From Takakia lepidozioides (taxonomy: Eukaryota; Plantae; Bryophyta), in contig CM060734.1 in the NCBI GenBank assembly GCA_030704615.1, positions 10,106,001 to 10,170,000 on the forward strand: a stretch of 64,000 nucleotides of DNA, in the 5' to 3' direction. The notes beneath the pieces were generated by a model. It had not been told where the DNA came from. It worked only from the letters and a program-made list of their open reading frames with translations, and ran no database searches. This document shows, in pieces, positions 14,042-39,960 of the stretch (the stretch's first letter is position 1; every line of letters begins with the position of its first letter). The position numbers and the translations under genes were made by a program.

Positions 14042-15288
14042 TAGTACCTCCAGGGCTCAACAGTCTATCAGGGCTCAACAGTGGCAAAGCTTCTCAGGCC
14101 TTCAATCTTGTGTCACCTGTGGTCATTTGATGCTTTACTTAGCCTACTTCGACGTCGAATTTCTGTCCATTGCTGTATACCGAGTGAGTTTGCAAGTCAC
14201 GAGTCACCCACACTACAATCATACCTGACTACTAAGTTGAGGCGTACATGCAGATTGCTCAATGCAGAGAATATCCATGTGTTCTTTGATCATTTCATAT
14301 CAGTGTCAGCCACCGGGGCAGGCTGGCATCGCGCAACTTCACACATACAAGAAGGTGCGGACAGTTGCACAACCCGGCGCTTAGAATTGAGTCCGCAATC
14401 GCCTACTCAATACATGATTCGACTATGAGAGTGAGAGGAGATAGGTCTCTTTTAGGCTCTTGAATAAGCTAGAAAAATCTCAGAATGAAGGTAGAATTGT
14501 CAGCATGAGCATTCATGCAAACAGCGCAATGCCTGCAAATCACAGGCTGCTTTTTCACCTACATCTCAAGACAGCGAGGAAAATAACACTCCCCTTACAA
14601 AAAGAAATGTTCAGCCCTTCTCTCACCTCCGATCGGAGTTGTGATATTTGAAAATTGCTTGCTTCTCAGCAATTGTGGCTTTTTCAAAGCAAAAAATTAA
14701 GTGAAACTACATCTGCAATGGTTATGAGAGAAACAACACACACACGCACACAGAGGAGCAAGAGAAAGAAGGAACAGAGAGGAAACCTCGAAGGTCGATG
14801 ACATGGTTCTCAAAACTGTCAGAGTCATAAGTGACAGCCTTCACCTCTGGCGTTTTCCCATTCACAGTTTTCTTATTCCCTTCCTTCTTCCGTAAGCCGT
14901 TCGTCCGCGTTTGCCCAGTCGCCCGCATAGTCACAGAAAAAGAAAGCACCAACCTCCCACCCACGCAAACCCACACACCCCCCCACCCTCCACAGACAGA
15001 CACAGACAAACACACACACGAAAAAAACCAACTACCAAATCACCTCGGAGCACATGCCTGTTGCAGTGATGATGACCACTATCACAGAGTCTGATCGTAG
15101 GACGAATTTAGGAACCTCGGATGCAGAAACTGTGCTGCAGCCTGCGAGAGACGGACAGAGAGAGCCGCTGCTCTCCCTGCCATGCTTTCTTCCTCTGTTA
15201 GGGACTCGGTAGCTTCCTGAGGCACGATTCCATCTGAGCTGTTAGATCTATAAATAATTTTCTTTTCTTCTTCTTTTTTCTTTTTCTT

Positions 15289-18671: not shown

Positions 18672-19662
18672 TGGAATCCACAAGGACAGACCTTGGGATG
18701 CGAGGCACATAAGGTGCGGTAATCTAACCCAACTTTTAGGAGTAGGACTTGTTTTATATGACATAAGCTAGGAAAGCTATGACCATTCAATTGCCAAGGT
18801 AGAAGATTTCATACGTCTTCACTGCTAATCACTTGTTGTGAGTTTCTTTCCTCTTCACCAAGTGAAGAACCACAGGTGTAGGAATGGGAACAATGGGATG
18901 GCCTATATATGCACTCTTGTTCAATGCATACTGTCAATCATTACCTGTCTTTTATATCACAGAATATATATGTGTCCGCTCAAAAGCATATCTCGAAGAA
19001 AAATAATGCTTGCTGCATCAAGCATTCCGCAGTATATCGATGCTCCCTGTATGGAGCACTGCAACTTCTCGTACGGGGATTCTAACCTTAGACCTTTTGT
19101 CATTTCCCCTTATAATCCCGCTGCAAAATTCCTCATAGAAACAGAAAAAGTTGGAAAAACAGTGAGGGGGTAGAAGGTGAGTTTTAGAGCAGTGGTTGTT
19201 GTTCCCCTCACATGAGTGAAGGATGTGAAGCACATGAAAACCCAGAAGGGTCTGTGACCTCTTTTCATTAGGAAGTTATAAATGGTGCGTTACTCCAGGG
19301 TAGGGTCCACTGAGGTTCACAAAGTAGTTAATCATTTCCAAGTCAGTCATTTCACCACGAGCTCGGCAAAATCCATGAGAGGTCCCTGCGAGCAATTGTG
19401 AGAAGTAGTTTTAGGTCACATTTTGGTGCGTTTACTATGCGTAGGGTCCTCGAGTATCCAATCTTTTCCGTTATGGTGGGATCAGCCCATTGAGGCGCAT
19501 CCCGGGAGCGTCCTGTTATGAGCATCCCCATGATTAGGTCTTAGTTCGGGGCACCCGAAGAAGTTCCGGCGCACCCATGGAGTTGGGTCCTCGGGTATCC
19601 AATCTTTTTCCAGTTCAAGTATTTCACCATGAGCTCTGCAAAATCCATGAGAGGTCCCTGCG

Positions 19663-20388
19663 TGTCGCGCACCTCACTTCGGTAAGCTCCCCTTCAAGTC
19701 ATAGTTACTTGCTTTGATGCGCGCGCCTAACTCCCAACCTGGCCGCCGGGCCAACTCGGAGCTTTGGCTGCTCACCGGGACATAACGGTCCCCCTTTTTC
19801 CACCAACAGACCCTCCGCCAATTTGGGCCTAGTGGAAATTCCCTTTGGTAGATGGCAGTCCGGAATAGCTCCCCACTCCTTGGTCGCTTTCCGGCTCGCT
19901 CGCTTACTCACTAGTTTTTGGTCACCAACGGGCTTGCACCGTTCTCGGGGTTACTACTCCCTATATATACACTTCTGTAACTGTCCGCGGGGGTCTCACA
20001 AACAACCATGCCATTTTATGGCGAACCACCACGAAGACCCTCAATTCCCGGTGATGAGTCGCGGTGAGTCTTGGCCCACCCACCATGGCCCCATTGGACC
20101 GTGGTGAGTCCCAAGACTCCCCATGATTCCCACCACAAGGTCTCCGCCCCATGGTGAGTCCTATGCCACCCCCACTAAGTCCCACTAAGCTACCACCACC
20201 CCTTGTGGAGCCACCCCCACCGCAACCCGGTGTGCGGGGCTCCACCTAGTGAGTGCCTCCACCTCCTTGAGTGCCTTGGGCACTCAAGGGTGCTTCAGCC
20301 CCCCGTACCTATTGTTGCCACCGCCCCCACCACAGGGGCAGCCCCTCTGCATCCCGACCCCCTGCCCTCAAGGCAAAGGGCCGCGACA
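19663..20388 (-). mobile_element. 3' LTR of the chromovirus whose 5' LTR is at 52478-53195
   Basis: Reverse complement of 52478-53195 (about 3% divergent by eye) with TGTCGCG..CGCGACA termini. Preceded on the minus strand by PPT GGTAGGGGTG (20391-20400) and followed by CGCAG. Confidence 0.95.
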
Positions 20389-20445
20389 CACACCCCTACC
20401 AACAGGGAGTCGATGTCCTCATCGAGTCACGGGCTTACATAACCT

Positions 20446-20646
20446 ATCACAGTCAGTCACAGCTTGACACAGCTTGTCACAGCCTGACACAGCCTGACAC
20501 AGTTTGTCACAGTCTTACACAGCTTGACACAGCCTTACGCAACCTTACATAGCCTATCACAGCCTATCACAGTCAGTCACAGTCTATCACAGTCTATCAC
20601 AGCCCGACACAGCCCGACACAGCTCGGCACAGTCACAGCCCGTCAC
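20446..20646. repeat. Degenerate ~10-bp tandem repeat with (T/G)(C)ACAGC core
   Basis: tcacagctt gacacagctt gtcacagcct gacacagcct ... Confidence 0.85.
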
Positions 20647-21151
20647 AACGTTCACAGGGAACGGTTATCATTGGCAGGGAATGACTGTGTGGGAACGACA
20701 ATTGCAGAGGGAACGTACATTCTGTCTTGGATGACAGTTAGTTAGTTAGCCGGTTAGAACAGCTTGCAGGTAGAATAGGCAGAGTAGCGACATAGAGGGG
20801 TCACTTCTTGAAGATCACTTCTTGGACATCATTGGGGGAGATCAGGCGGAGAGCACGATCTTGGAGCGCAGGGATGGAGATTACACAGAGGAGGAGATAT
20901 GACGAGATGATGCTTGATTCATGCAAGCTGTAGAGATGCACTGTAGAGCAGATTAGAGACACCATGGCTTCGGCCTGATACTTGATAGATATTAATCCGA
21001 TATATATTTCATACTCACACTGTGTAGAGAGACCTGAGTGAAGCTGTGGAATGAATGTTTGGGTAGATGGAACATGGAAGATTGCAGAAGCAATCTGATA
21101 CTTAATCATAGACAATAAGGTAACTTGCTAATATGAATGCGAGAAGGAATA

Positions 21152-21236
21152 TGTCGTGCACATACATATCGCTACACAACTACATCGCTGTCCAAACCAC
21201 ACCACACATATATGCACAATAAAGTAGTCTGCCACA
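21152..21236 (-). repeat. Terminal repeat B2 (85 bp)
   Basis: Direct copy of 21597-21681 with 3 mismatches; TG..CA ends. Confidence 0.95.
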
Positions 21237-21237
21237 A

Positions 21238-21594
21238 TGATAACCAAACTAGAAAAGGACACACACTCTCAACACAAGAAATATGCAATCCCTCAACATC
21301 ACTCTTTAAGATAATAGTCGAGCCAGGGGCACCCCAAGCTATGGGGACTCCACCCCACAACAACCTACACTCCCATCATAAGCACACTCAGATCTGAAGA
21401 ATGCAGGAGCTCGGTCGCGCAGGCTCAACTCGAGAGAGATGAGCCGCGCGACTGCCGCTCTCGTGAAGATAAGACGGACCAGGTGTCAAACTAAACTTGA
21501 CACCTGATTTAACACTTGACCTAAATCCAAGTGTTAAATACAAATAACTAGTTTTATTCTAGCTGTTTTCACACTGTGCTTATTTAACTTGACA
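21238..21594 (-). repeat. Repeat A2 (357 bp)
   Basis: Direct copy of 33171-33526 (about 3 differences). Confidence 0.95.
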
Positions 21595-21596
21595 GC

Positions 21597-21681
21597 TGTC
21601 GTGCACATACCTATTGCTACACAACTACATCGCTGTCCAAACCACACCACATATATATGCACAATAAAGTAGTCTGCCACA
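21597..21681 (-). repeat. Repeat B1 (85 bp), directly after the PPT
   Basis: Joined to A2 by the palindrome GACA-GC-TGTC (21591-21600). Confidence 0.95.
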
Positions 21682-21693
21682 ATCGCCCCCCTA
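21682..21693 (-). promoter_or_regulatory. Polypurine tract
   Basis: Minus strand TAGGGGGGCGAT immediately before the TG of B1. Confidence 0.75.
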
Positions 21694-21941
21694 GCTGGTG
21701 GATAGGTCCCTCTACCTCCAGATAGCTACAAGATGAAATAGCCACAACCGTACTAAGTCCTCTATCACTGTCCCTATTGTACTCAAACTCTATAGACCAA
21801 GAGGCCGGGTACAAGAGTAGCCCCATCGTTAATCGCCGTCTTGCAATCTGTGAACTTGAGCCAGGATCTCGTGTGTTCAAGGTCTCCTAGTAGCTGGGCC
21901 TTGCGTTTCTTGTTAGCCTTCCATGGTTGTATCCACTCCCA

Positions 21942-23200
21942 CTATCCAATGCAATGTGGACATAACCAATCCCCATCTGGAACCATCTCAAGAGGTGGAG
22001 TCAAGCATCCCATATGCCAACCTCTAGAGCATCGATCACACCAGCATGGTGGCTGCCCCTTTAGCAGACCCACACAACATGCACCTCAAACCTGCAGATA
22101 CCACTGCCAGATTTGGGTCAATCCTGCCATCGACATTCGGAAGGTGACATGGCACACAATACGCACATGGTCCTTCCAAGTTATGCCATCCCGACCCTCC
22201 AAGACCAAGACGCCTGAGGGCAAGACCTCTCGAACCCTCAAAATAACACGTCCTGCAGTCACATCCAGGGTCGTAGGAGCAGTCTGCTGCAGATAGACAT
22301 AGTCACCAGGGTTGAATCTCCGAACCCCAGGACGATAGCCCCCACCACGTATGGTAGCATACCTCAACGTATCACGGTGTTGAGCAATGGCAAGGTTCTC
22401 GAAAGCCATGGACATGACTCTCTTGAACAATTCTGCACGCTGCTCACATGCACGTGCCCACACGTCCGGATCGTCAAGGTTAAGAACTGTAGCAGCTTCT
22501 CTACGAATGGATGTAGGCAAATCCGGCTCTCGGCCAAAGAGAAGAAAGTATGGTGAGAAGGAGGCAAGTGATGCTTGCTTGCTGAACCTGTAGCCCATGG
22601 CTAACCAGGGTAACTGAAGGTCCCAATCTCCTAGGTGTCCCTTCTGCAAGCCATACTTACGCAAACCCCTCTTTACTGTCTGAACAACTCTCTCTGCCAA
22701 GCCATCGGCCTCAGGATGATCCCGAGAAGTGGTGCGGTGGTCTATCAAGGCCTTGTCACACAAAGCCTGAAACTCCCCCAAGAACTCTCTCCCTTGGTCC
22801 GTGAGTACCTCAGCTGGAGCACCGAATCGGCTAAGCACACAATCCAGGAATACATACGCAGCTCCCTCACTAGCCTTATCAGGCAATGGAACCAATTCAA
22901 TCCACTTGGAGAAGTGCTCCACCATCACCAACACGTACTTGTTGTGGCGCATGGTCAGTGGCAACGGCCCTGCGAAGTCAAGACTCCACCTGTAGCCCAA
23001 TCCCATGATCGGAAGAGGGTGCAATTGTGGAGTAGGGGCGTTGAATGAAGCACGCACCCTGTCACACACCATGCACCTAGCCACAAATTGTTGTACCTCT
23101 GTGTGCATACCACGCCACCAATATTGCCCCTGCAGTAGACTATGAGTGCGTCGCACCCAAAATGCCCCAACTCCTCATGGGCATGGCGCACTAACCGTGC
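21942..23200 (-). pseudogene. DDE (rve) integrase with C-terminal PHD finger; frameshifted
   Basis: HAHEELGHFG...CMVC zinc finger; WSLDFAG / LTDQGREF / GLAER catalytic triad (ORF 22086..23156). After a shift: CMLC...LV(C)DRCSRGWHMGCLTPPLEMVPDGDWLCPHC* (22083-21942). Confidence 0.9.
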
Positions 23201-23203
23201 CCG

Positions 23204-24900
23204 CTATGTTGGGTGAGGCACAATCCTCACTCGACCATCCTCCCACACTCGGAGCAGGTGTGTCCCCTCCCACCTGAACCTCTTGGCTCGTTGTAGGATC
23301 CGATCCCTCTCCTTGGCAGTCACAGTCGCTGCCGTGTCTCCAGTGCGGAGGTAGTCCAACACAACTGAATCCTCATGTATATCTTTGGCGCTACCTTGCT
23401 CATTGCTGGCCTCAGGGTCCTCACACACTTGATCTACAGCCATCCCTGTTGCAGGTCCAACCTGGCCTTCCGCTGCCAAGATACACAGAAATGCAGATGC
23501 ATGCCATCCGGGCACCATCTCCTCGTCCGTCTCACCATGCCACCGAGCTCCAGTGTCATCATGTTGGCTCGTGCATGGATTGCGACTCAACCCATCTGCA
23601 TTGCGATTGACCAAACCCGGTCGATGCACCACCTGAAAGTCATACTCTTGAAGGATGAGTGCCCACCGTGCAAGCTTCTCCGTAAGCTTGTCTAACTCCA
23701 TCAACCACTTGAGTGGTTGGTGATCCGTGACAAGGGTGAAGAGATTGCCGTATAGATAGCACCTGAAGTGTGCCACGGCCCACACTGCAGCTAAGCATTC
23801 TCCCTCATATGAGCTATACTTAGACTCTGCAGCATTGTTCGAGAGGCTAGCATAAGCCACTACGAACTCTCTTCCCTCATCATCCACCTGTGTGAGCACC
23901 CGCTCCAAGCCCTAGCATGCTCCAATCTGTATGCAGCTGAAAAGGACGCCCCCTGATAGGTCGTCTCAAGATGGGCGCCGAGGTCAACCTCGCCTTGAGC
24001 TCTTGAAAAGCTTGTTCTTGCTCATCTTCCCTCTTCCCACTGCCACTCCTGGTCCACCTTGGTCAGCTTGGTTAGAGCTTTTGCAATGGCACTGAATCCC
24101 TTAACAAACCGTCTGTAATAGTTTGCTAACCCCATGAAAGCTCGAACTCGGCTCACATCCGTGGGGCGTGGAACCTGTGCAATGGACTCTACCTTAGTCT
24201 GCTGTACCCCCAATCCTCCAGGATATATCATGTGACCCAAATACTCAATCTGGTTGTGGAAAAACTTGCACTTGCCCGGATGTAACTTCAATCCGTGCGT
24301 CTTAAGCGCTCAAATACCCCCTGAAAGTGTCTCTCATGCTCCTCCACCGTAGCACTAAGATGATGATGTCATCTATGTAGCACCGAGCAAACTCCACCCC
24401 TGCTAGAATCCTGTCCATGACTCTTTGAAACTCAGCGGGAGCGTTTTTTTAAGCCAAATGGTAAGAACCGCCACTGGTATAGGCAATCCTTCCCGTGCTC
24501 ATTGATCCCCCAGAATGCCGTCTTTTGCTTATCCGCCTCCTTGATCGGCAACTGGTGATATCCGGATCGTAAATCCAACGTGCTAAAGACCTTGGAATGC
24601 CCAATGGCATCAAAGATCTCCTCTGGTGTTGGCATGGCATACTTATCGGACTTGGTCTGACGATTTACAGGCCGGTAATCACCGCACATACGTCTCTCCG
24701 TCCAATTGCCATAGACATCCTTCTTAGCTGGCATCACTGTGGCTGAAACATACTCTCCACCGAGAGCTCCACCAAACCTGCCTCCCAGAGATCTTGAGTC
24801 CTCATCTGAATCAAAGACCTCTCCATGTCACTGTATCTATAGGGTCTCCAAAGATTGGCGTGTCAGTGGCCAACTCAATACGGATCTCTTGACCCTTCAG
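23204..24900 (-). pseudogene. Reverse transcriptase and RNase H; frameshifted
   Basis: RRMCGDYRPVN, LDLRSGYHQ, LPFGLK, CYIDD (~24368-24382), KCKF..EYLGH, FMGLANYYRRF, YEGECLAAVWAV, TDHQPL, NADGLSR. Confidence 0.92.
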
Positions 24901-25369
24901 TGCTCCCAAGTCCTTCAAACTGAAGGCAAAGCAATTCCTATAAGCCCTCAGGAACCGCCGTATACGTCGTCTCTCTCCTCCGGTGACAATGGGTCCAATG
25001 TCAGGCTCCCAATTGTCCTCCGTGACTGCAACCTTAAGTCCAGTGGGCTTAGAGGTAGAGGACGCGTCCCGTGGTTGATATGCTGCAACCTCTTGAGCAG
25101 TACTTCCTTCCTGCTCAGTCAATGACAATGCCTCATCCTGCCCCATCATCTCATCATTGAGAACCTCCTCATCCCGAGAAGAATCCCCAACCTCATCCAT
25201 CACAGCTGCTTTGGCTGCCAACTCCCTCTGAACCTCGACCACCTCCCACGTGTGCCATGGATGTCTACACCCCGTGGTCCTCACCGGCTCGCCCCCACTC
25301 GCTGCCTGTACCGTCTCGGTAGGCAGAGAGACCGTCCAGGGAAGTGCGCTCCGCACTCTACGTTGCTCA

Positions 25370-26330
25370 GCCATAGCCAAGCTGATAATCCAGGTCAAGC
25401 AATTGAGATCCATTGCTTGCCCCAACACCTGCCGACGTGATGCCTCAGAAAGAGAAGGCACCGCCGTGGTCCCAGTGGAAAACCCCATAGCCTGCTCTCG
25501 CTCGTCGGCATTTGGCTCCACTAACTGTTGCAACTGGCTATCCCACAGGAGGCCAGGTCCACCATCCCGAAAAGCATGGGATCCTGGGAAGCTGAGCAGT
25601 GTAGGTAATGCTGCTCGTGGTTGACCCACCCTATTGACCACTGCCAAAGGCGAACGGTCATCGTGTCTCACACGTTGAGACTGCCTCCCTGTGTCCAAAA
25701 TGCCATCCACGGTAAGGTGTGCTGGCCGCTGCACCCCATCAAATGCACGCTTGAGTAGTGCGGGTGGCATCAAGTTAGTCCACCAAAGCCGTGGACGATG
25801 AGTCCGTGACCCCACTGCAGCTGCATCCAGCAACACTGCTGACCCAAGCCACGACCGGACTTGATGCACACTGGCCATCACCCTGGCCCGAGAATCACCC
25901 ATCAGTGGTACATTCTCCAAGATGTATGCTGGAGATACAACTTGATGAAGCTGCAAGCAGCGCAAAATCTGCACCATCTCCCAAAACAGACCCGTCCTTG
26001 AGTCTCGCAATCCATTGCCATGCCCGGCTGATGAATGCCCTTGGCAGGGCCAACCTGCCACTACCAGATCAATGGAGCCAACCTGCTCTAAATCCTGCGC
26101 CCCCAGCAAGAAATGTCTGCTGGCAAGGCTTGTTGGAATCCACGAACTGCAGACACTGGCAACAAGTCAGGGTATTGTTGTACCAACTGAGCAACATGGC
26201 GCAGTGAGACGCGTCGTGCAGTCTCATCCCTCTCCACATACAAGTAACGTCGAACTCGTACACTGCCTGTAGCACATCAGCCAATCCGGTGCTGATCCCG
26301 CCAAACAAGTCCAGAAGGCAATGCCTTCAT
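25370..26330 (-). CDS. DNMT3-like C5 cytosine DNA methyltransferase domain within pol
   Basis: Motif I LDLFGGISTG (~26315-26285); II YLYVE; IV IDLVVAGWPCQG; LFWE; VI ILENV; VIII HRPRLWWTN; IX-X EREQAMGF...RRQVLGQAMD. Motifs IV-X lie in the unbroken ORF 24811..26109, which continues into the RT N-terminus. There are small frameshifts N-terminal of motif IV. Confidence 0.92.
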
Positions 26331-26633
26331 CCGGATACTGCCACACAATAGGTGTGGTATCCATGGTGACAACTGAGGTGGTCCTGGTGCAATACCCGCA
26401 CTCTCCTCCTCTCCTGACGGAACAAAAGCCTCTACCCAGGCTTGTTGCACCCGTCGATCAGCAACCTGCTGCAAATCCTTGCTCGTACCCCACAATGGAG
26501 TGTGAGCAACCCATGGCAGGCAACTCCGCCATACCATGCATGTCATCCTGCTCTGCTGGAGGTGGCACATCCTTTGCATGGGCATTGCCTTCCAGCAACT
26601 CTCCAGGCCAACTAACTGCAGCTGTAAAGGCGG

Positions 26634-27060
26634 CTAGTGTGGCATCTTGCCCCGCTGGGCAGCCGCTATACCCCCAATGAATGTCACAGGGAGCTGTGCA
26701 CGGCGACCATCGCCTGACTGCCATCCAGGCCTGTAGGATGCTGACTCCTCCCAAAAGTCCAGGGTGAAGCCCATGGGGTATAACACTGCCCCACCAACGA
26801 GGACATCGTAAGAGACTGTGTCTGTCACAATGGCATTGGCTCGCATTACTGAGCCATCGATATGATGATCCGGCTGCAGTCTAATGGCCAACTGATGCCG
26901 TGTCATGCCCCGAGCCTGCTCTGATCCTCCCAGAGATGTCTGTATCTGGAAAGGGCAAGGCTCCATATCCGCCTCCATGAGGCCCAAACCTGCAATAGCA
27001 GCTCTGCCCAACATCAGTGGCTGAGCTCCCGAGTCCAACAAGACCCGCAGTGGCCGGTAC
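26634..27060 (-). CDS. Retropepsin aspartic protease
   Basis: VLLDSGAQ active site and YDVLVG motif. Confidence 0.85.
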
Positions 27061-27168
27061 TTCTTGCCTGCCGGTCACTCAAAGTGAAAATGCCTCCCTG
27101 GTTGTCTAACAAGACAACTCCAGGTGTCACCATGGCGCGCTCAAAGGCTGGCCTAGCTGGCAGCTCCG

Positions 27169-29276
27169 TCAACCTGGCAGCTGCAGCTTGCCAGGCGCAG
27201 CCGTGGCAGTCTTGACCCTCAAATCCGAGGATCCCTCTGCCACTATACCTTCCACTAACTCCGCAGAAGATGAAATGACCTCCCCACTCTCATAGAGTGT
27301 TGCTGCTAGTCTGAACACTGCAGCTGGCCTTACCCCCGGCGTGGCAATCATTGTTGCCGAGAACAGTGGGGCCTGACACACAGAGGTGGCTGCCCCCAAT
27401 AACACACCGGCCGCACTAGCCTTGGCAGCAGGAGTCAATGCTGCACGTGTAGCTCTCCCCAATAGCATAGTAACCTCCGCCTCGGGAACAGTCGGGCGAG
27501 AACTAGGTGCCATGGATGGCATCGATACAGTCTCCGCCAATGTGAATGACTGAGGAAGCCTCGCCTGACGGCTTGCCTCCCCACGCCGTGGATCCAATTC
27601 CACCTCTGCACCTCGTGGCTCAGGAACTCGTGCTGCTCCTCGAGTCACGGCTGCAGCAGACTCCACCTGCTCTAGTGGTAGTGCTGCTCCGCACATAAAT
27701 CCCATGTCTCCCATATCTCCTCCCTCAGGAGCAGGAGGTGGACCATCCCGCCTGGGAGCCGGTACCCCCGCCTGAGCTGTAGCCATGGCAGCGAGCCTCT
27801 GCTCTAGCTGCTGAAGCCGGTTGGCCATGCCTTGATCAACATCCTGACTTCCGCGTCCTTGGCCATGTTGAGCTTGCCCTTGGCCTGCACCTCGTGCCCG
27901 ACCAACTCGTCCTCTCTGGGCTGGTCCACCTCGCCCCCGGCCACCATTGTTCCCTTGGAACTGGCCTGGGCGCAACTCAGGATGCAAGTCATAACACTGG
28001 GCATCTCCATGCCCATACTTGCCACGATGCCCACACTGCAACTGTGCAGGCTGTGCTTGTGCCGGCCTTCTGCCACTCTCTGGGCAATCTCTCTTGACAT
28101 GGGGTCCTCCACATGTCCAACATATCACCCCTGGTTGCTGTTGGCCTGCAAAAGATGCCACGGGCCTCTGCACTTGAGGTCCCCTGTAAGCTCCATGGAA
28201 CTTGGGTTGGGAAACCTTGCCCCCCTGACCACGGTGCTGGGCAGTACCTTGTGCCTGTGGGCTGGCAGCTGCGCCTCGTGCAGGCATGTCCTTGCCAAAT
28301 CCAATGGTGACAACTCGCTCCTCCACCATGTTGAGCTCAATCCGCTCAGCCAGCAGAAACACATCTGCTAATGTGGGTTGGGCTGCTTGTAACAAGGTTG
28401 CATCTCGCACCCTTCTCTTGAGCTCCTTGTCCAGAATTCCATACCAAAACTGGATTGCCTGAGCTTCAGTAACCCCTTGGGTCACACTTATCAAGCGCCT
28501 CATACGAGTGTACGCCTCTCGCAGGCTCTCACTGGGTTTGCGCTGAAGTCTTGCAAACTTCGCAGCTTCTCTGTCCGTACACCTTGGTAGTTCCTCCGCA
28601 ACTCCTGGAAGAACTCCACCACCGGGTTGAATCTAGGCACATGTGTTGTAGTAGTGGCAGGAGGAGTAGTAGCACCTTTTGAACTGGTACCACCTACAGA
28701 AGTACCAGCACTACTTGCTCCACTACTAGTGCTGGCAGTAGGAGCTATTGGTACTGATGCAGCTACTGGTCGCGTCGTGCCTCGAGTAATGGAGACGTAG
28801 TCAGGTGACCAATACATCCTCCACTCCTCAATCTCTGCTTCATGTCCTCGCCTGAACTCGTGGTAATCGTCCATAGGCGGGCCTTCCAAATGCTGGAACA
28901 GTCCCTTCCACGCCATGAATGGGGTGAATAGCTGTGGATTGCGCATCTGCTGCAAATCACACCAGCTGTCGAACTCCTGGATAAAGTCATCCAACTCGAT
29001 TGTGCCCACAGCTCCAGAGTACCTACGAGGCCCCTTGGTAGCTCCATACATCTCCTCCATGTCGTCCCACAACAATGGCGAATGAAAGTGCACACCTGTT
29101 GATGAAGCCTCCGAGTCTGTGTCTGACTCTACAGTAATTGAGGGTGGCGGTGAAGGTGGTCTGAACCGAATACCTCGTCTTGTGAACCCACTCTCACTGT
29201 TACTGCCTGTAGCCGTACTCCCCTCAAAACCCTTGGGTAACTCCGTAATGACACTCACAATGTGCACCTCCTCCAC
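27169..29276 (-). pseudogene. Gag (frameshift near 28510)
   Basis: ELDDFIQEFDSW capsid-like region; zinc knuckles CWTCGGPHVKRDC and a degenerate CGHRGKYGHGDAQC. Confidence 0.85.
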
Positions 29277-29795
29277 GTGACACTATAAGGCTCTAGTACT
29301 AATCTAATAGTGACACGGGTGGGCACCTGTTGCAGTCTAAGGGTCATATCCCAATGGCTCAGGGCACCTGCACCTGCATCCACCGCAAGAACTCCTATGG
29401 TTGGCTGGTCATCAACCCAGCCTCACCATAGAAGAAACACTGGTGGTCTTGCTGGTCATCACTCCAGCCTCACCACCGACAGCATACTCTAGGATTGATC
29501 GGTGATCAAATCCGGCCTAATCCCTATGAAAGCAAGCGCCCACACAAAACCAACATGGCGCACAGTCAAGCATGCAGGTGTTGGGGGGGATCCAAACACA
29601 AGAAATCAAAACATCAACACCCCCACACCAAAATCCAGCTGCAATGCTGATCCTGCAGAATATCCCAGCCCAAAACCCCGGACTGACTGGCCTCCACCAA
29701 GAGAGGCTTTGGCAACTACGAGTACAAGGTAATGAAAATAGTACAGAGATGGAGGGGAAGAATAGAAGCCCGCCCAAGCAAGATCTAATCCTGAT

Positions 29796-30545
29796 CTATG
29801 CTATCAACTTCCAGACTTCTCTCAAAGTGCCTCGCTCTGCGTGATGGTAAGGTGTAGGAGGTATATCTATGTCCAGAAACCTGCCACTAACCTTGTCCCA
29901 AGCTACAGTAGCTCGCTCTAACCAACCCTCCTCCTCTTTCTGCCAGGTAGAGACAAAGCAATACTCCCCTATCTCCCGCTCACTGAACACTAAAGAAAAC
30001 AAAGGTAGGGTCTGATAGTCTCTCAACTCGAAAGCTTTGAGACGGTTGCGGGTGTCCTCATTGCGAATGACTGCATCTCCTTCACGCACAACAAACATGT
30101 CATTGCTGATGAACCCCCGCTCGTGGTTGCCCTGTGCAGAGCGTATCCGGCTGCAACCATGTCTGATTGCACAAACTTGTGTAGCTCCTGCTCCTCTGCT
30201 CCAGTACACCACGGCCTTGTGACTGAACACCTTGGTCCCCGGGGCTGTCTTTGGCTGTGTTCCAAGCCTAGCTTTCACCCACTTTGGTATTTCACCTACA
30301 GCTGCAGAACTGCTGGCTCCAACAGAGTTCTGACTGTCCAAGGCGATATTGAGGCCCTCAATGCCAACTACAGCAGTCTGTTGTCTACTGCTAATGCCTG
30401 ACTCCCAGTATGCAATCAACTCGTCCAACTGTTCTCCACTCAAATCAGTCTGAGTTCCTTGGGAAACATAAATCCTGTCCCCTTGTGTGCACAGACTAAG
30501 AGAACAGACCTGCCCTTCAATTACGTCCTCATTTCCCCCAGCCAT
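29796..30545 (-). CDS. Extra 249-aa ORF of unknown function upstream of gag
   Basis: Intact ATG-to-stop ORF on the element's sense strand with globular-protein composition; no motif recognised. Confidence 0.5.
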   Translation of the reverse strand: MAGGNEDVIEGQVCSLSLCTQGDRIYVSQGTQTDLSGEQLDELIAYWESGISSRQQTAVVGIEGLNIALDSQNSVGASSSAAVGEIPKWVKARLGTQPKTAPGTKVFSHKAVVYWSRGAGATQVCAIRHGCSRIRSAQGNHERGFISNDMFVVREGDAVIRNEDTRNRLKAFELRDYQTLPLFSLVFSEREIGEYCFVSTWQKEEEGWLERATVAWDKVSGRFLDIDIPPTPYHHAERGTLREVWKLIA

Positions 30546-30802
30546 GCAAGGAGTACATCCACCAATTTGTCTCTCATATAGACCAGCACAGGTTCTAGAG
30601 ACAGGATTGTGGATCTTTCATGGCACACTCACACTCTAAAAATTCCATAGATTTTTAGCAGAGTCCCCAAAACAGAAACCAGGTTTAGATAGGTAGATTT
30701 CCCCTTTCTGCAGCTATCCCCCCAAAAACTGGGTCAAACAGAGTCCATTTGACAAAGATATGATGAATTTGGCTCCAAATCATTCAAATTAGATTAAAAA
30801 GG

Positions 30803-30842
<40 letters not shown>

Positions 30843-31957
30843 CAAGTTTAAAAATTCAAAGTTACACCCAAAATATCTGGTAACTGGTTCCCGGTTCCCT
30901 AAGTTCTATATGGCATCCTAGGTTCCCTGGCCACGTGCCTGCTGTTCCCCTCCATTTCATTTGAGTTCAACAGCTCACCATGCTTTGGAATCCCAACCGT
31001 CTTCTACCACAAACCGTGGTGACGATGGAGGTCGTGAAGCGATTCTTCCCAGTGAACCCTCGAGAGACGAGTCCCCTGCGCACTTATATACACTCTCTTA
31101 ATAGAGATCAAAATCAGCAAGGAGACACCATTGACGACACCCAGAGATCAGAGACAAGTACTTGCGCAGTTCGGAGGCCACAGCATCCCCTCTGGACACT
31201 GAGCGGGGAATAGCTGCTACACAGCAGCTCAGTCTATCGTCAGCTCCTATACCTACTAGCTTCCTGCCCCTGCCCCTCCTTCTTCACAACAAGATTGACC
31301 GTGGATATGCGGAGAGGTGGTCTACCTGGGATCACCATGAAATTGCACAGATCGGGAATATCTGGTCGGCATCAGCACTATAGTGCCAGGGCACATAAAC
31401 CAGATTGTAGGAACAGCTAGAGGAAATGCAGGTTATGCCAGCATCATCCAGACCATCCCTGCATCTTGGATATGAATCCTCCAGCAGGGGCCGTTGCCTC
31501 CATTGCCCGACACTTGGGTTACATGCTCAGCTAGACCTAATCAGGTCATTTCCGTGACAGATTTCAGCGGCATTCAAATCACTGGCCTCGCTATGCACTG
31601 CTGCCCTCAATCAAACATCCTGCAAAGCTGTCACACACGATGCAAAGCTGGCTGTCTTTCTCTGGCAGATCGCACATAGAATTCTAAAGGTAGGGCGTTG
31701 GCTTCAATTCACCCGTGCACTGCTCTGCTTATGCTGCTCGCTTGGGGTTTCAGAATCTCTGGAACACTGCCTACTGCCATGCAACATACCTTCAAAAATC
31801 TGGCCCAAAATTCACTGGCTGCTCGGACACTGGCATGACCAAACCTCTTTAACTCCAATCAGCCTGCTACTGAATTACGATCCCATCACCAAGCAAAATC
31901 TATCCCAATGCCCAGTTGAGCTGCCAGTCTCGCATTCACTTTCCCCACCAAGGCAGC

Positions 31958-32172
31958 TGCAGTACACTGACTGTCTTAGCTCCCTCCATGACAACCTCCC
32001 GCATTTGGGCAAGTTCAGCTTCACGGACCTCCCAACGACTTAGCAGCTGCTTCAGGTCATGGTCCTAGCTAGCGCATGCTGGGCTGCAACCAGTTGCAGG
32101 TCCTTATCATGTAGAAACCCCTTCACTGCTCTCTTTCCATCTCCTGACGCCATGCTCCATCCTCCAGCCACT
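31958..32172 (-). other. Captured host-gene fragment (copy of ~4345-4563)
   Basis: Reverse complement of the MRC/PII1-like exon segment with few substitutions and one small indel. Confidence 0.9.
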
Positions 32173-33154
32173 TCACTTGTTTCAGGCACCCAGGTCCCTA
32201 TGGGCAGGTCACATGCTCCTGTGCCAGCCAGAACAGTGACATTCGACCCCTTCGTCTTCAGGAACAAGCTGGTAGCTTCCTTGATGTCATCAGTTTCCTG
32301 GACACTTAAACGGCAGTATGGTCGCCACCTCTGATTGAGGCAGTAGTGGTGACGAAAGGAGAAGGGAACACAGGGAAAGAGCGAGGAAAAATAAGGGCGG
32401 AGAACTGCTCATGTCAAAAGGTCAAAGCCAAAGAGGTCGAAACATTGTGCGAAGGGGGACTGTGTTTCTGCTGCCCTCTCCCACTTCAGCGCAACATTCA
32501 GCGTCCAGAGAGTGAAGTCCCTCTTTAAGGTAGACCTCCACGGTAAAGAAGATGAAATGCCCGCCACTTTCTATCAGCTTTCTGTCTTTGCATATGACTC
32601 CTATCCCAAAGTGCAGGCCTGTCGTGCGGACCTCAATCCAGACCAGCTTCCATTCGATCCACTCGCTTCCACCACACAGCTGAAGTCAGCCAGTTCGAGC
32701 CGCATATCAACAGCCTGAACGGGCTGTTCCCCCTGCTGTAGAGATACTCGAGCGACCAAGAGCCGCCACCATCAACCAGACCCTTGCCGCCACAGCCGCT
32801 GGCTCTACCTGGACTCCCATTCACTGCTGCCCCATTCGCTGCTCCCATTCACCGCAGCGGGCTCTATGGGGCCTTGACATCACACCACCAGCTGCCATCG
32901 ACATATCCTCCGCAGACGGGTGACGCCCTTATAGTGGAAGCAGACCTCGCCAATGCCAACAGAAATATGGGCAGACCACCATTACTCTCTCTTCTACCAC
33001 ACCATTGCGACTGAAGATGTGAGACGAACTCAAGCTAGAGCCGTTCTATGCTCATTGCTTGAGCTGCATACAAGACCATGACCATCTATATTATAATAGT
33101 GCTTAAAAAAAACAAAAACATCATATCTAGCTTAGCACTGGAAAACTAGATAGA

Positions 33155-33170
33155 GCTCAACTCTCTCGAG
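33155..33170 (-). promoter_or_regulatory. Self-priming primer-binding site
   Basis: CTCGAGAGAGTTGAGC immediately after A1, complementary (15/16) to 33361-33376 inside A1; no TGG tRNA-type PBS. Confidence 0.7.
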
Positions 33171-33526
33171 TGATAACCAAACTAGAAAAGGACACACACT
33201 CTCAACACAAGAAATATGCAATCCCTCAACATCACTCTTTAAGATAATAGTCGAGCCAGGGGCACCCCAAGCTATGGGGACTCCACCCACAACAACCTAC
33301 ACTCCCATCATAAGCACACTCAGATCTGAAGAATGCAGGAGCTCGGTCGCGCAGGCTCAACTCGAGAGAGATGAGCCGCGCGACTGCCGCTCTCGTGAAG
33401 ATAAGACGGACCAGGTGTCAAACTAAACTTGACACCTGATTTAACACTTGACCTAAATCCAAGTGTTAAATACAAATAACTAGTTTTATTCTAGATGTTT
33501 TCACACTGTGCTGATTTAACTTGACA
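33171..33526 (-). repeat. 5' terminal repeat A1 (356 bp)
   Basis: TGTCAAG...GGTTATCA on the minus strand; copy of A2. Confidence 0.95.
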
Positions 33527-34474
33527 AATACAAATAGGAAGCACCCCCATGATACACTAGCTGTAGGTCATGACTAATTGTTTTGAGCGGGCTGAGTGCT
33601 TAGACATTTCCAACTCTTCTATCTTGGAGTTTCACCTCGGATAGCTAAGGGATGGGTGCATTTGGCGACCATACTGGGGAACTGAGTCAAGAACAACCAA
33701 ATGTGACAGGCATCTGGTGGGATCATGGTAGATGGAGAATCAAAGAATTTGATGTGAATCAAATTCCCTGTGGAACTGAGAAAGAAAAATTGTCCAAACA
33801 ATTCTTTCAGAGGTTCTTGGAATTGCCAGACGGTTGCAAGGAAAACATTCTTAAGAGAGTGCATGATGCTGATCCAGAGTGGGGTCTGGAGAAAGGAGTG
33901 ATAAAGATTTATCAAGTGGCCTGTAGAGGGAGAGCAAGTTGGTTACCAACACTGGTTTATGTGATAGCATTGCTATCCATTAAACGAGTGGAGTTTGAAA
34001 GCTGGGAGGAACGAAAAATAAATGTTTTTACTCCTATGCATGAAGAACTTGTACTGGTAAAGAATTGGATTCCTAAGGATATTTTGTGGATCAAACTTAC
34101 ACCAAGAAGAGCTTTTCAGACGTGCTTGCCATATGGTTATATGGTAACGGAGCCTTCTAGTATAGCCAAGGCCGGTGCATTAAAGCTTGAGCATACGAGA
34201 GACACTACAGAAGAGAGTTTTGATTATTGCCTCATTAAAGATATGAAAGACATGGGACATGAGTGATGAAAGGGAAGCTAGACTCCACAGATATTCAGCG
34301 AAAAGAGAAAGTTATTTGAAAGCTAATTATCCATATCTCTGGGAGAGAGGAATAGACATAGGGGAATCATTTAAACCTCTCACACCATTAAGGCCAGAGA
34401 GTACATCACCCATACCGGAAGAACCAGATTTGGATGCCACTCCTTCTTAATCTTTACAAGAAAGATTAAGGGAT

Positions 34475-37400
34475 TTGGTACATGAAGAAGATCAGCCACG
34501 AGGGGAAAGATCCGAGGTACATCCCTGGGTTAAAGATTTGACAGAAATCTTTGATCTGAGTTGGCATGGAACACCAAGAGCAGGAATTCCAGTTTCTAAA
34601 ACACAAGCCAAAGAAGGAGAGGAAGATGTGGCAGAGCCAACGGAGAGTTCAGACTCTCCAATACCACTTCAGTTGCGTTATATGAGTGAGGAAGAAGAAA
34701 TCCAACAGAAGAACTTGGAAGATGAAAACAGAGAGAAGAATTTGGAAGATGAAGAGTATGAGGAAGTAGACCCAACAGTTGAGGTTGAGACTACAACCAA
34801 GACATCCCAACCTATTGGACCTGGATCAAGTGTACACATCAGCCAATTTGAGCACATGTGTATTGTGAACAATGAGAATGGCGATGATGCCAAGATGAGT
34901 TTGTTTCCTTGTTCACTTATCAAGAAAGCAAGTGAATGGTATGCAAGGTTTCCTAATAATCATTTCCTAACCTGAAATGGTCTTAGTACAACATTCCGAA
35001 ACATGTTCATGACAAGCAAAACTGAGGATGAAGTGTATGGGAGTTTACAACAGTTAAGGCAAAAGAAGCATGAAACTGTTGAAGAGTACATGGAAAAGAT
35101 GGAGTTAATGATGAAAAAGCTGGCTGTTGTACCGGCACCAGGATTACAGAAGACTTGGTTTGTGAGTGGGCTAAGACCTAAATTACAAAAGAAAGTGGAT
35201 ATGCTACCACATAATACAGTGGAGGAGGCATTCAAAACAGCCAACAGAATTGAGCAATTGGGAATGCTTAGAAGAGATAAAAGGGATGATGACGACTCCG
35301 AAGATGAGTAGGAAGGAGAGCAAGAGCTCAGGAGGAAGAGCAAGAAGAAGGAAAAGTTGAAGAGGGACAACTATGAAAAAAGATTGGAAGAAATCTTGAA
35401 AAAGTACGCCACAGAGGCTGCAACACATTGGAGGAAGGGTGTTTGGTGTGCAAAGTGCCAAAATGAAGGTCATACCACAACTTACTGCCACATGAAGGAG
35501 AAACACTGTACTATCTGTAAAATGGATAACCATTCTACTGAGAATTGTTATTACAACAGAAGGACAGTTGCGATAGAACCTAGGCAAGTGAGGGTGCATC
35601 AAGTGCAACCCCAGCCAAGAAGAAACAATGATCAGGACCATTATGGTAGGCCTGGTGGATATAACAATGGTATGGCAGGAAGAGATAATCCAAGAGGGAA
35701 TTACCAAGGCAATTCCAGAGGCAACTATCAGGGTAATCCAAGGGAGAATTACCAGCCAGGGAATCAGGATTATAGAAATAATCCCAAAATAGACCAAGGG
35801 CGAGGACCCAACGGTGAGGAACTGTGTTACTATTGTAACCAGGCAGGACGTCGCAAAGCAGCCTGTCCATTCTGGATCAGACACCAGAATGAGATGAGAG
35901 CTCCTGTGAATGAAGGCCCAGTAGTGGCAGCTCACATGGTTATGCCATGTTTTGTACCAGAAGTAAGTACGATTATAGTTACCAGAAGCAAAGCTAAACT
36001 AATACCTCCAGTGGATGAGGAGGAAGATGTAAATGAAGATGGCAATGATGTGCCTGAAGATGTTGAGGCTTGGAGAGATGAGAAGGAACTGCACAAAGAA
36101 GTGGCTGATACCATAAGGGAAATGCAGAAGGATACTGATATCCCTATGGATTCTTCTGACTCTGAAAGAGAAGATGAAGAAGGTGAAGAGGAAGTGAAGC
36201 AAGAGGCTTCACAGGTGCAGGATAATGAAGGGACTTTGGCTGAAGTAATATGTCAGTCCAAAGCTGAGATTACAATTGGGCAGCTATTGGCTCTGGTACC
36301 CCATTGTAGACACAGGTTGTATCAAGCAATCAATCAGATTGCTCATGAATGGTTGAAGCTCATCAAACAACCATGCGTTGACGCAAGGTAGTTTGAGAGT
36401 CCTGCCAATGTCTCTTTTGCCTTCACTCGAACACAGACCTGAATAGCAGAGTGACAAGTTATAATGTGAAGCCTGAAGGGCGAGAAACAGTCATGGACTT
36501 TGATGATTCCATGCCAGTAATCCAATTGAGAATTGGAAACACAGACTTGACTGATGTACTGATAGATGGAGGCTCGGGAGTGAATATTATGACAGACCAA
36601 TTAAGGCAGAAGCTTGGTCTAAGTAACATGAAACCAGCCCCATTCACAGTAACAATGGCAGATCAAAAGAGTGTACAACCATTAGGCTTCATAAGAGGAG
36701 TAAAGATACAGATTCAGAAGATGATCTTTAAGATCATAGTGACTGTGTTGAAAATGGATGATGTCATGGAAGCTTACTCCTTATTGGGTCAACCATGGCT
36801 TAAACAGGCCAGGGTAATCCATGACTGGAATTCCCAGTTACTAACTGTGCATGATGGGGAGCACAAGATACAGATCACCACTAAGAAATATGGTAGACTA
36901 CCTGCTACACGGAGACCTCGTGGAGTCAGAGAGTATGACTAGAGGGGAGGGCTTGATGAGGAGCAGGAAGCTACACTGTTTGCTGCACACCCAGAGTGGG
37001 AGCAGGTTGCATAAATGCAATTGGGAGGCTTGAGTTGCTTTAAAGGTATCTGCTGTGGTGCAATAACAACAACACCAATTAAGGAGGAAACAAGCAGTTA
37101 CCCACCACATTTCTATGAAGAAAGAGATGGAGAAATAGAAATCCTAGAGGAACCAGCACTGTGAGTTTACAGGATGAAGTAGTGGTTGGATGGACAATCA
37201 CAACTGAAGAACAGGTGAGAGAAGTGAATGTGGGAACTGAGGAGGAACCAAGAATGGTGAAAGTTGGGGCTGACTTGGAGCCGGAATTCTTTGAGGAAGC
37301 TAAGAGCCTGTTTATCAAATACAAAGATGAATTTGCTTGGAGCTATGAAGATCTGAAAGGGATACCACCTGAGATCTGCCAGCATAAGATTGAACTAGAA

Positions 37401-39960
37401 CCAGGGTCAGTACCAATCAAACAGGCAAGGTACAGGATGAATCCCAACTATGCACAGAAGGTTGGGGATGATATTGTGATAGTTCCCAAGAAGAATGGCA
37501 AACTGAGAGTTTGTGTGAACTATAAGAAGTTGAATGATTGTACAAAGAAAGATCCCTTTCCTTTGCCATTCACAGAAGCTGTACTGGACATTGTGGCAGG
37601 CCATGAGATGTACTCATTCATGGATGGTTTCAGTGGGTATAACCAAGTACAAGTAGCTGAAGATGATCATGGAAAGACAGCTTTCATCACAGACTGGGGT
37701 GCTTATGCATACAAAGTCATGCCTTTTGGACTTTGTAATGCACCAACAACTTTCCAGAGAGTGATAAGTGAATCTTTTCAAGAGTATTTGGATGATTTCA
37801 TGCAAGTGTTCTTAGATGACTTCAGTATGTACAGCTCTAAGAATGAGCACTTGCAGAAGTTGGAGTTATGTTTGGCCAAATGCATGATGAGAGGTCTTGG
37901 TCTAAATCCAGAAAAGTGTACTTTCTGTGTGACCTCAGGGGACACATTGTGTGTAAGAAGGGACTGCTTGTGGATCCTAGAAAGACTGAGGCCATTAAAG
38001 CATCCCCATCAATAAATATTAAGGCTCTAAGAGATTCCTTAGACAAACCAACTACTACAGAAGGTTTATCAAGCGGTATGCACAGATGGCAGCACCATTG
38101 AGCAAGCTTTTGAAGAAGGATGCAGTGTTTGCATGGACAGCTGAATGCCAACAGGCATTTGAGGCACTTATAATGTCAGTAACAACTACACCTGTGTTGA
38201 TTAACCCTCACTGGCATGTGGTATTTCATGTACACTGTGATGCCTCAGGAGAAGCATTGGGGGTTGTGTTAGCCCAAAATGTCACAGGAAACATAGATTC
38301 ACCTGTGTACTATGCTAGCGGATTGTTGAACAGTGCTGAGAGGAACTATAGCACTACTGAAAGAGAAGCTTTGGCAATGATTTATGTAGTCAAGAAATTT
38401 AGTCATTATCTACTGGGAAGGAAGTTTATGTTTTATGTGGATCATCAGGATTTGATTTATCTGGTGAACAAGCCTTTGATAAGTGGCAGGATAGCAAGAT
38501 GGTTGATTATCTTGCACGAGTTTGAATTCGAAGTTGTTTGCAAGTCGGGATGTTTGCATCTTGTGGCAGATCATTTGTCACGCCTTTCAATAGGAGAGCC
38601 CGCCACATGAGTAGACGATCAACTGCCTGATGCCAGTTTATTCGCAGTGGAGGTGCAGGGAGCAGATGATTGGTTGGATTGGCAGTGGCCAATCAGATAC
38701 TACCTTACTCATGGTCAGTGCCCACCCAGTTATGGGAAAGAGCAAAGGAAAAGAATAGCTATCAAGGCATTACCATACACTATGATAGGTGGAAGATTGT
38801 ATAAGCTAGGACCTGATGGAGTTCTTAAATGATGCTTGTACCACCATGAGGTAAATAAAGTTTTGGAAGAAGTTCATAAAGGAGTGGCTGGCGGTCATTT
38901 TGGAGAAGAGACTACCAGTAGGAAAATACTACTTGCAGGTTACTGGTGGCCTACTTTATTCAAGGATGTACACAAGTTTTGCAAGAATTGTGATGAGTGT
39001 CAGAGGCTAGGACCTTTGCAAAGATCTGGGAAGATGGCTTTGCATCCTATGATGCCTACTGAACCATTCCAGAAATGGGGATTAGACTTTGTTGGACCAA
39101 TTAATCCACCAGCCAGGAATACACAGAACAAGTATATAATCACAGCCACTGATTATACCACAAAATGGGTGGAAGCTAAGGCTCTGAGGGACAACACAGC
39201 TAAGTCCACATCAAGGTTTCTATATGAGAACATTCTCACAAGATTTGGCTGTCCCCTGGAATTTATCAGTGACCAGGGAAGTCATTTCATTAATGAGACC
39301 ATTGAACTATTGACTAAGGAGTTTATGATTGTGCATAGGAAGAGTGCAACCTATTACCCACAGGGCAATGGGCAGGCAGAGGCCACCAACAAAATACTAT
39401 GCACTATTTTGGCTAAGATAGTCAATGCAAACAGGACAGACTGGGATACAAAGCTGTTGACAGCTTTGTGGTCATACATGACTTCATATAAAGTCACCAC
39501 CAAGTATACACCATTCCAATTAGTTTATGGTATGGAAGCTTTACTTCCAGTGGAATTCTTATTACATACCATGAGAGCTGGATGGGGAAGGAGAATGGAA
39601 TTGGAGGATTCAATTAAAGTAAGGAAACATGAATTATATCATGTGGAAGAAGTACGTGCTGATGCAGTAGATAACATGACCAGAATTCAGATGAAGAGGA
39701 AAGATCAGTTTGATGAAGGTAAATTGAAGACTTTTAAGACGGGTGATTTGGTACTGTGGTTGCCGAAGAAGGGAAAGGTTAAAGCTTCTAAGCTTAAGTC
39801 ACCATGGAAATGACCTTATATCATACAGAAGATGTATGATAACAACACAACTATATTACAAACCATTAACAAAGAGATGCTTGGTAGAGTCAATGCCAAT
39901 AAGTTGAAGGGATACAGTGGTATCCATGATAGACCATTGCAGCATGATTTGCATCTTGAA
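34475..39960 (+). pseudogene. gag-pol with stops and frameshifts
   Basis: gag LFPCSLIKKASEWY and CX2CX4HX4C knuckles; PR LIDGGSGVN; RT DGFSGYNQ, MPFGL, FLDD; RH CDASG, TEREAL; INT GGHFG..CDEC, WGLDFVG, SDQGSHF, NGQAE. Confidence 0.92.

Follow-up and report, generated by a model that had tools for sequence, protein, structure and literature searches.

A Ty3/gypsy retrotransposon carrying its own DNMT3-like cytosine DNA methyltransferase (DNMT) lies in a 64,000-nucleotide stretch of the moss Takakia lepidozioides genome (assembly GCA_030704615.1, contig CM060734.1, positions 10,106,001 to 10,170,000 of the forward strand), hereafter the window, in whose own numbering all coordinates are given. 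The element is of the KnitGypsy-Dnmt3 kind, named for an element of the alga Klebsormidium nitens, and extends that kind to land plants; the window holds a dead copy of a multicopy retrotransposon. The overall reading that we favour, with some reserve, is that the DNMT closes the Gag-protease reading frame, would be packed into the particle and would methylate the element's own complementary DNA (cDNA), and that insertion would proceed from an end-joined circle cut at a palindrome.

The element and its insertion

The element is 12,375 bp long, lies on the minus strand and has TGTC...GACA ends in the repeat map. Its limits are as follows.

21152..33526, minus strand: whole element (repeat map; empty-site joint)
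33527..33530: upstream copy of the 4-bp target-site duplication (end comparison)
21148..21151: downstream copy of the 4-bp target-site duplication (end comparison)

The domain order is Gag-protease (PR)-DNMT-reverse transcriptase (RT)-RNase H (RH)-integrase (INT)-PHD, and at the level of the family a stop codon is interposed (Gag-PR-DNMT-stop-RT-RH-INT-PHD). The gag-PR-RT-RH-INT order with a DDE integrase is that of Ty3/gypsy elements, as are the TG...CA ends with target duplications in the 4-6 bp range, which measure 4 bp at 9/9 independent two-ended insertions (six perfect and three with one mismatch). The element lacks the matching pair of long terminal repeats (LTRs), with a polypurine tract (PPT) beside the terminal one, that is usual for the group, and is organized as A-body-PPT-B-GC-A-B; in addition, a PHD finger follows the integrase where chromoviruses have a chromodomain. 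No match to a tyrosine recombinase was found in the open reading frames (ORFs) of the element or in those of an intact relative, locus L031 (L numbers denote related loci), an rve integrase being found instead, so that the element does not qualify as DIRS/Ngaro.

An empty site (joint 21147-33527, with four letters in common) was present in four of four sequencing runs. The insertion target (20600-21151 plus 33527-34000) is itself a multicopy repeat, whose joined form occurs in the four runs. Contig depth was summed per run (X1, X5, X6 and X7) and does not give a copy number; run X7 has a gap over the DNMT core, from which no conclusion was drawn. The window copy is dead because DNMT motifs I and II lie in other frames and because the reads of sister copies differ from it, with one or two base differences at at least 12 listed places and 85 more.

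That the DNMT is a chance fragment of a host DNMT3 gene in one copy, or an assembly artefact, has already been refuted and retains practically no probability. The window copy is indeed full of frameshifts and a short-read assembly may misjoin repeats, but the contig depth in host DNA is even over DNMT, RT and INT, the same domain order is found in proteins of Marchantia, Sphagnum, Closterium and Klebsormidium, and the insertion has both target duplications and an empty site. Other copies of the family carry the domain, a point on which an earlier note on this DNA, made from its letters alone, had made its own interpretation depend, and this supports the conclusion that the DNMT belongs to the element family and is no one-off insertion.

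The DNA methyltransferase domain

The domain and its motifs are located as follows.

25360..26340, minus strand: C5 cytosine methyltransferase domain of DNMT3-like type, with motifs I-X following one another canonically and frameshifts near 26319, ~26260 and 26109 (PF00145; motifs)
26297-26317, minus strand: motif I, LLDLFGG (motif search)
26223-26243, minus strand: motif II (motif search)
26038-26058, minus strand: motif IV, AGWPCQG (motif search)
25909-25923, minus strand: motif VI, ILENV (motif search)
25789-25800, minus strand: motif VIII, HRPR (motif search)
25480-25503, minus strand: motif IX (motif search)
25417-25437, minus strand: motif X (motif search)

The C5-methyltransferase motifs that the earlier note had reported between protease and RT were thus all located, and the set formed by I, IV (PC), VI (ENV), VIII (RxR), IX and X is complete, although I and II are frameshifted in the window copy. 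The PF00145 search that had been proposed as a check gave 44.6 bits on the frame 26166-24811, above the curated cut-off of 22 (E 1.7e-11). When 32 homologues were combined into a profile and compared with solved structures (PDB), DNMT3A was the best match (E 3e-20), followed by DRM (5e-9) and M.HhaI (1e-5), and Foldseek also ranked DNMT3A first for the predicted structure of a relative's domain. The motif order is unpermuted, and the nearest class is DNMT3, ahead of DRM and the bacterial enzymes. Judged on profile and modelled fold, the domain is DNMT3-like, as had been proposed.

The catalytic residues are well kept among the homologues spanning each site: the catalytic Cys in 186/190, the Glu of motif VI in 209/221 and the Arg residues of motif VIII in 205/231 and 210/227, while the S-adenosylmethionine-binding motif I is kept in all six intact domains that were aligned. 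Between families, the proportion of nonsynonymous differences (pN) is 0.13-0.23 where that of synonymous ones (pS) is 0.64-0.76, and the ratio of the corresponding rates (dN/dS) is 0.09-0.33 where unsaturated, two unsaturated pairs giving 0.09-0.11, like the protease. These sequence comparisons support purifying selection on the DNMT between families.

Several points weaken this picture of the enzyme. The structural model is weak (pLDDT 62, TM 0.41), and dN/dS rises to 0.6-1.0 within the Sphagnum-like family, where changes are few and mostly due to decay after insertion; in the pair L047-L049 the DNMT value is higher than those of RT (0.37) and protease (0.31). The dN/dS comparison suggested in the earlier note therefore came out in favour of selection between families, with Cys and the motif VI Glu conserved, and not within that one. 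Besides, the homologous domain of Klebsormidium was inactive in yeast, a result that its authors call inconclusive in the text available (PMC5890265).

This last result, together with the faster evolution of the DNMT relative to RT and INT, would suit a domain that has lost methylation and now binds nucleic acid or has a structural function in the particle. The conservation of Cys, Glu, motif VIII Arg and motif I just described speaks against it, and so does the fact that a second clade has retained the domain after its relocation to the region separating RH from INT (47/50 proteins with a long RH-INT gap), for which reasons we hold such a role to be improbable.

The stop codon between methyltransferase and reverse transcriptase

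25072..25080, minus strand: family stop-codon site with CAA-CCA context, TAT here and TAG in sister copies; putative readthrough signal (reads, relatives, CAR-YYA consensus)

The codon at 25080-25078 is TAT in the window copy, whereas the reads of sister copies carry the TAG base in 898317/904921 of the summed depth in X1 (99%) and throughout the depth of X5, X6 and X7. The linker between DNMT and RT is spanned by 57 of 81 related loci (57/81), many of which represent one moss family or one insertion in two samples, with six sequence families covered; a stop occupies the homologous codon in 53/57, TAC is found in two, and two are unreadable in frame. Judged from these sequences, the continuity of DNMT and RT in the window is a private mutation and not a property of the element. 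The unbroken 432-codon frame that the earlier note had followed from motif IV into the RT does exist as a stop-free frame (26166-24811, with its first ~19 codons off-frame), but it does not extend to sister copies or to most relatives. The enzyme is no neighbouring gene, as had been argued, since it belongs to the element family, but it does not head a continuous pol frame: in the family it closes Gag-PR-DNMT, ahead of a stop that is probably leaky.

As the DNMT closes this frame, it is likely to be made at the Gag level, and the in-frame stop of sister copies and of 53/57 loci suggests that RT-RH-INT is a readthrough product. We consider it very probable that RT-RH-INT-PHD is made by readthrough of the stop after the DNMT, ribosomes mostly halting there and only sometimes continuing. 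A UAG followed by CAR-YYA is the readthrough consensus of the tobacco mosaic virus type, active in plants according to the text available (PMC2754532), and the exact CAR-YYA context follows the stop site in the window, L031, L106, L096, L077, L079, L036, L085 and L086. In L031, intact in-frame ORFs of 1355 and 1047 codons are divided by TAG-CAA-TCA, and many database proteins terminate at the homologous stop. A stem is predicted 3' of the stop with z -4.2 in L031 and z -2.3 in the window, with no good fold in L036 and L049 and a weak consensus fold. On the other side, the context of the main moss family is CAA-CCC, which departs from CAR-YYA. A +1 frameshift between DNMT and RT was dropped as a candidate once the DNMT frame had been corrected. 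A stop between gag and pol is known from Tca2, where it stands after gag (PMC2194720, as far as its accessible text goes), whereas in the family of the window element it comes after protease and DNMT.

Terminal repeats, palindrome and priming

The element is laid out as A1-body-PPT-B1-GC-A2-B2, with the following parts.

33171..33526, minus strand: repeat A1, 356 bp (99.2% identical to A2)
21238..21594, minus strand: repeat A2, 357 bp (repeat map)
21597..21683, minus strand: repeat B1, 87 bp, with GACA at its end (96.6% identical to B2)
21152..21237, minus strand: repeat B2, 86 bp; the A2/B2 joint is a putative circle junction (repeat map)
21684..21692, minus strand: PPT directly before B1 (common to relatives)
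21591..21600: palindrome GACA-GC-TGTC at the B1/A2 joint, where the integrase would cut internally (found once in the window)
33360..33370, minus strand: putative self-primer, at which the transcript likely begins (11-nt complement to the primer-binding site)
33161..33171, minus strand: putative primer-binding site from the last base of A1 (covaries with the self-primer over four sequence families)

Ends of the form B-xx-A-B occur in eight independent copies. The palindrome is exact in seven relatives (L031, L047, L053, L094, L096, L109 and L112), two of which, L109 and L112, belong to a distant group with RT-RH-DNMT-INT order, and it is decayed in seven old copies. Split direct repeats are a feature of DIRS/Ngaro elements. 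DIRS-type elements use a tyrosine recombinase, however, in contrast to the DDE integrase, TG...CA ends and 4-bp duplications found here.

The putative primer-binding site after A lacks the TGG start of the tRNA type. In its place there is a self-priming complement, recognized by sequence as in Tf1/sushi and Tcn1 elements, which begins at the last base of A and pairs with a site midway along A in 9/18 ends tested, with four different sequences. By analogy with Tf1, the RNA of the element would in high likelihood prime itself, although the complement is missing from five of the 18 ends, lies elsewhere in two and is only 8 nt long in two, which weakens this view. Self-priming of the Tf1 type has also been predicted, in place of a tRNA primer, for Tcn1 chromoviruses in mosses (PMC6317226, accessible text); Tf1/sushi and Tcn1 elements have ordinary paired LTRs and a chromodomain, whereas in the window element the repeats are permuted and both a DNMT and a PHD finger are present.

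A proposed circular route to insertion

Because the primer site follows A and the PPT precedes B, the real LTR is likely to be B-GC-A, and ordinary reverse transcription would yield a linear cDNA flanked on either side by B-GC-A. Relative to such a molecule the genomic form is circularly permuted, from which we infer that the ends were joined and the left palindrome was then cut. Joining would create an A|B junction (the precise A|B joint is compatible with a blunt join of the predicted ends), and the integrase would make one staggered cut at GACA^GC^TGTC of the left repeat, leaving two CA-3'OH ends with 2-nt overhangs, so that the cut circle would be inserted as A-body-B-GC-A-B. Two ends with 2-nt overhangs are the form that the integrase inserts in retroviruses. 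Taken jointly, the steps from linear cDNA through end-joining to the palindrome cut seem to us moderately probable.

In support of this route, aberrant joins fall on the exact start of B in L066 and L072 (RT-truncated DNA) and in L097 (with filler), and L102 and L103 join there A plus 9 nt of the primer site plus filler. In the host's own family, 4/15 joints listed (of 17) land on the exact start of B. Seven independent A-body-B copies fit one-LTR circles, B1-B2 recombination or assembly collapse alike and were not used as support. As for precedents, the integrases of foamy virus and HIV-1 cut the palindromic LTR-LTR junction of circles, and circles can feed integration (PMC1180852 and PMC4372172, in the text available); there it is a side route acting at the junction of cDNA ends, whereas the palindrome of the window element lies inside the repeat, with a 2-bp spacer, and no fertile copy would be formed unless it is cut.

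The circular route has to face several unfavourable facts. Two equal sites on the circle should also yield A-B-GC-A-body-B, and this mirror product was found in 0/17 independent 5' ends, so that an unexplained bias for the left site is required. B1 and B2 of the window differ by 3.5%, A1 and A2 by 0.6%; the distance between B1 and B2 is 0.074 within copies versus 0.076-0.081 between copies, that is, they are no closer, and the rare letters common to B1 and B2 number four in six within-copy pairs versus eight in 30 others. In addition, each X1 joint is represented by one contig only.

The same ends could arise without a closed circle, the A/B joint being produced by a jump of the RT from the right end to the left end of the cDNA, by host repair after linear insertion, or by copying of B2 from the RNA. 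Copying of this last kind has been proposed for DIRS/Ngaro elements with split repeats. Such an origin could account for the missing mirror product (0/17) and agrees with a within-copy similarity of B1 and B2 that is not above the between-copy level, and the fillers at the joints fit template jumps as well as end-joining. It would nevertheless still require the internal palindrome as cutting site, the standard route cannot copy the B2 of the RNA, which is situated downstream of the first strand transfer (because the primer site comes after A1 and the PPT before B1), and the B1 and B2 of L064 have three rare letters in common. We judge an origin without a circle to be clearly less likely than the cutting of an end-joined circle.

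The probable role of the enzyme

The DNMT would be packed in the particle in Gag-like numbers, and, since a Gag-fused enzyme would meet DNA first as the cDNA of the particle, self-methylation is the best guess for its function. On balance we lean towards methylation of the cDNA by the DNMT, with CG as the likeliest target, which would leave the new copy pre-marked or protected. Self-methylation of the element was already proposed by de Mendoza et al. (PMC5890265), in whose accessible text the DNMT3 of SymbioDIRS-Dnmt3, from Symbiodinium, shows de novo CG methylation in yeast. SymbioDIRS-Dnmt3 resembles the window element in its A-coding-B-A-B layout and, with respect to the route preferred here, in its circular intermediate (PMC5890265, same text).

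The enzyme could alternatively act on chromosomal targets, such as the insertion site, copies already in place or rival elements, and the PHD finger in which the integrase ends might guide it there. The step from RNA to DNA is not its sole access to DNA, and a Gag-level product could be in excess. DNMT and PHD finger are, however, separated by the stop, and the CpG ratio of the element (0.51) lies inside the range of the neighbouring elements (0.14-0.85); neither CpG nor CHG ratios set it apart from the neighbouring elements of the window. The methylome of Klebsormidium is moreover ordinary and plant-like, as described in the available part of PMC5890265. Action on chromosomal targets thus appears unlikely, and methylation of the cDNA remains the preferred function.

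Relatives and distribution

Homologues of the DNMT are found in Calypogeia fissa (72%) and Marchantia polymorpha (70%), as well as in M. paleacea, Riccia sorocarpa, Sphagnum fallax, S. troendelagicum, Closterium and Klebsormidium nitens, so that DNMT-bearing Gypsy elements occur in named liverworts and mosses; the earlier note knew DNMT-bearing retrotransposons from dinoflagellates and Klebsormidium, and not as a described feature of land plants. The K. nitens protein KFL_009030040 has the order PR-DNMT-RT-RH-INT, and its DNMT is 45% identical to that of the window over 245 aa. In a quick RT tree, with only two long outgroups, the window element belongs to a group of 13 rows (support 97) that includes Calypogeia, Marchantia and rows of moss type, and the K. 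nitens protein falls in the same broad group without being its sister. A second clade, with RT-RH-DNMT-INT-PHD order (support 94), includes RTs of Haematococcus and Tetrabaena; the DNMT lies between RNase H and integrase in L108, L109, L112, proteins P0046-P0073 and others.

KnitGypsy-Dnmt3 of K. nitens belongs to the Gypsy group, bears a Dnmt3-type domain and has its repeats in the DIRS-like order A-coding-B-A-B (de Mendoza et al. 2018, PMC5890265, accessible text). The window element has in common with it a DNMT3-like domain in a Gypsy polyprotein with the K. nitens order, A-coding-B-A-B repeats and purifying selection on the DNMT between families. The former is known from one alga, as far as that text goes, whereas the kind found in the window also occurs in liverworts and mosses; the same text assigns the DNMT to the Pol ORF, without mention of the stop, the self-priming, the palindrome or the mechanism of the repeats. 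In a literature search that was thin in subscription journals, no land-plant Gypsy-DNMT3 and no stop, self-priming or palindrome mechanism was found, although the supplementary trees of 2025/2026 'streptophyte' papers may include land plants. EpiLTRs, which are LTR elements with a DNMT4-related cytosine DNMT, a DAM and a chromodomain, also carry a cytosine DNMT, but in the text available their authors hold them distinct from the streptophyte Gypsy-DNMT3 (bioRxiv 10.64898/2026.05.21.726589).

L031 (1-9285) is an intact element assembled as a circle in a genome bin labelled cyanobacterium, and is probably a eukaryotic contaminant of that bin; a transfer to bacteria was not adopted, contamination being preferred. 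Among viral contigs, a single-protein query found no relative, the DNMT profile found only weak phage-type methylases, and the palindrome gave 14 matches, none with a retroelement domain.

Other coding regions and the leader

27169..29282, minus strand: gag, divided over two frames, its zinc knuckle at 28105-28122 (frame and motif search)
26637..27074, minus strand: aspartic protease, LLDSGA at 27024-27041 (PF13975, E 0.002, under the curated cut-off; homologous to the protease of relatives)
24100..24960, minus strand: reverse transcriptase, YIDD at 24368-24379, frameshifted (PF00078)
23600..23935, minus strand: RNase H (PF17917, E 2.7e-28)
22100..23174, minus strand: DDE integrase with zinc finger, D at 22968-22982, D at 22791-22805 and E at 22680-22697 (PF00665, PF17921)
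21945..22100, minus strand: PHD finger at the integrase C-terminus, frameshifted (PF00628, 30.7 bits, cut-off 24)
29799..30617, minus strand: 273-codon stop-free frame upstream of gag (ORF list; multicopy depth)
30881..33115: low-copy segment within the 5' leader (summed contig depth ~200-fold under the rest in X1)

A gag piece of the window element is 78% identical to Marchantia P0002, and the frame at 29799-30617 had no match in Pfam, Atlas, the related loci or their proteins. The low-copy segment of the leader is probably peculiar to the window copy and may be a captured or retroposed piece. It adjoins a long sense-strand poly(A) at ~30805-30835, and a part of it (31958-32179) is repeated, inverted, at 4338-4563.

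Other elements of the window

At 60898-64000 (plus strand) a further element of this kind, diverged from the first, begins with its 5' end and is cut by the end of the window; its A repeat is ~70% alike, it has its own 13-nt self-priming pair, and its leader is 84% alike at 63506-63856. A chromovirus with a chromodomain (PF00385) occupies 52477-57735 (plus strand); a 728-bp piece of its upstream region is repeated at 19662-20389 in inverted orientation, and the neighbourhood of 44900-47900 holds a related copy in decay. Another Ty3/gypsy element, with a very low CpG ratio (0.14), is located at 35312-39813 (plus strand). Short tandem arrays of the CACAG/CTGTG type stand beside or within retroelements at 20408-20654, 40062-40148 and 62568-63159. 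On the minus strand, 13162-14056 holds probable exons of a host PWWP-domain gene, and 355-2192 and 7303-11075 hold decayed LINE-like endonuclease and RT frames, called by eye.

Significance

In the literature as far as it was accessible, DNMT-bearing Gypsy elements had been described from one alga, with activity unshown and no host for testing. Their presence in the genomes of Marchantia and Sphagnum, together with the intact L031, makes self-methylation of the cDNA testable in a model plant. The ORFs of such elements are already in databases as plant methyltransferase gene models, and programs that depend on paired LTRs would overlook the elements themselves or misplace their limits. If the stop is leaky, each particle is predicted to contain many molecules of the enzyme. 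It may be, as a tentative proposal to which we give slightly less than even weight, that a Ty3/gypsy clade spanning the green plants (chlorophytes, charophytes, liverworts and mosses) has shifted its integrase sites away from the cDNA ends to the middle of its LTRs, inserts only from end-joined circles opened by one staggered cut and, by means of a leaky stop behind it, loads into the particle at the Gag level a DNMT3 that would methylate every new copy, a methylation that may even determine which of the two sites is cut. If the circular route is true, an LTR retrotransposon would follow as its normal path a reaction that is only incidental in retroviruses, and this would connect LTR replication with that of the DIRS type.

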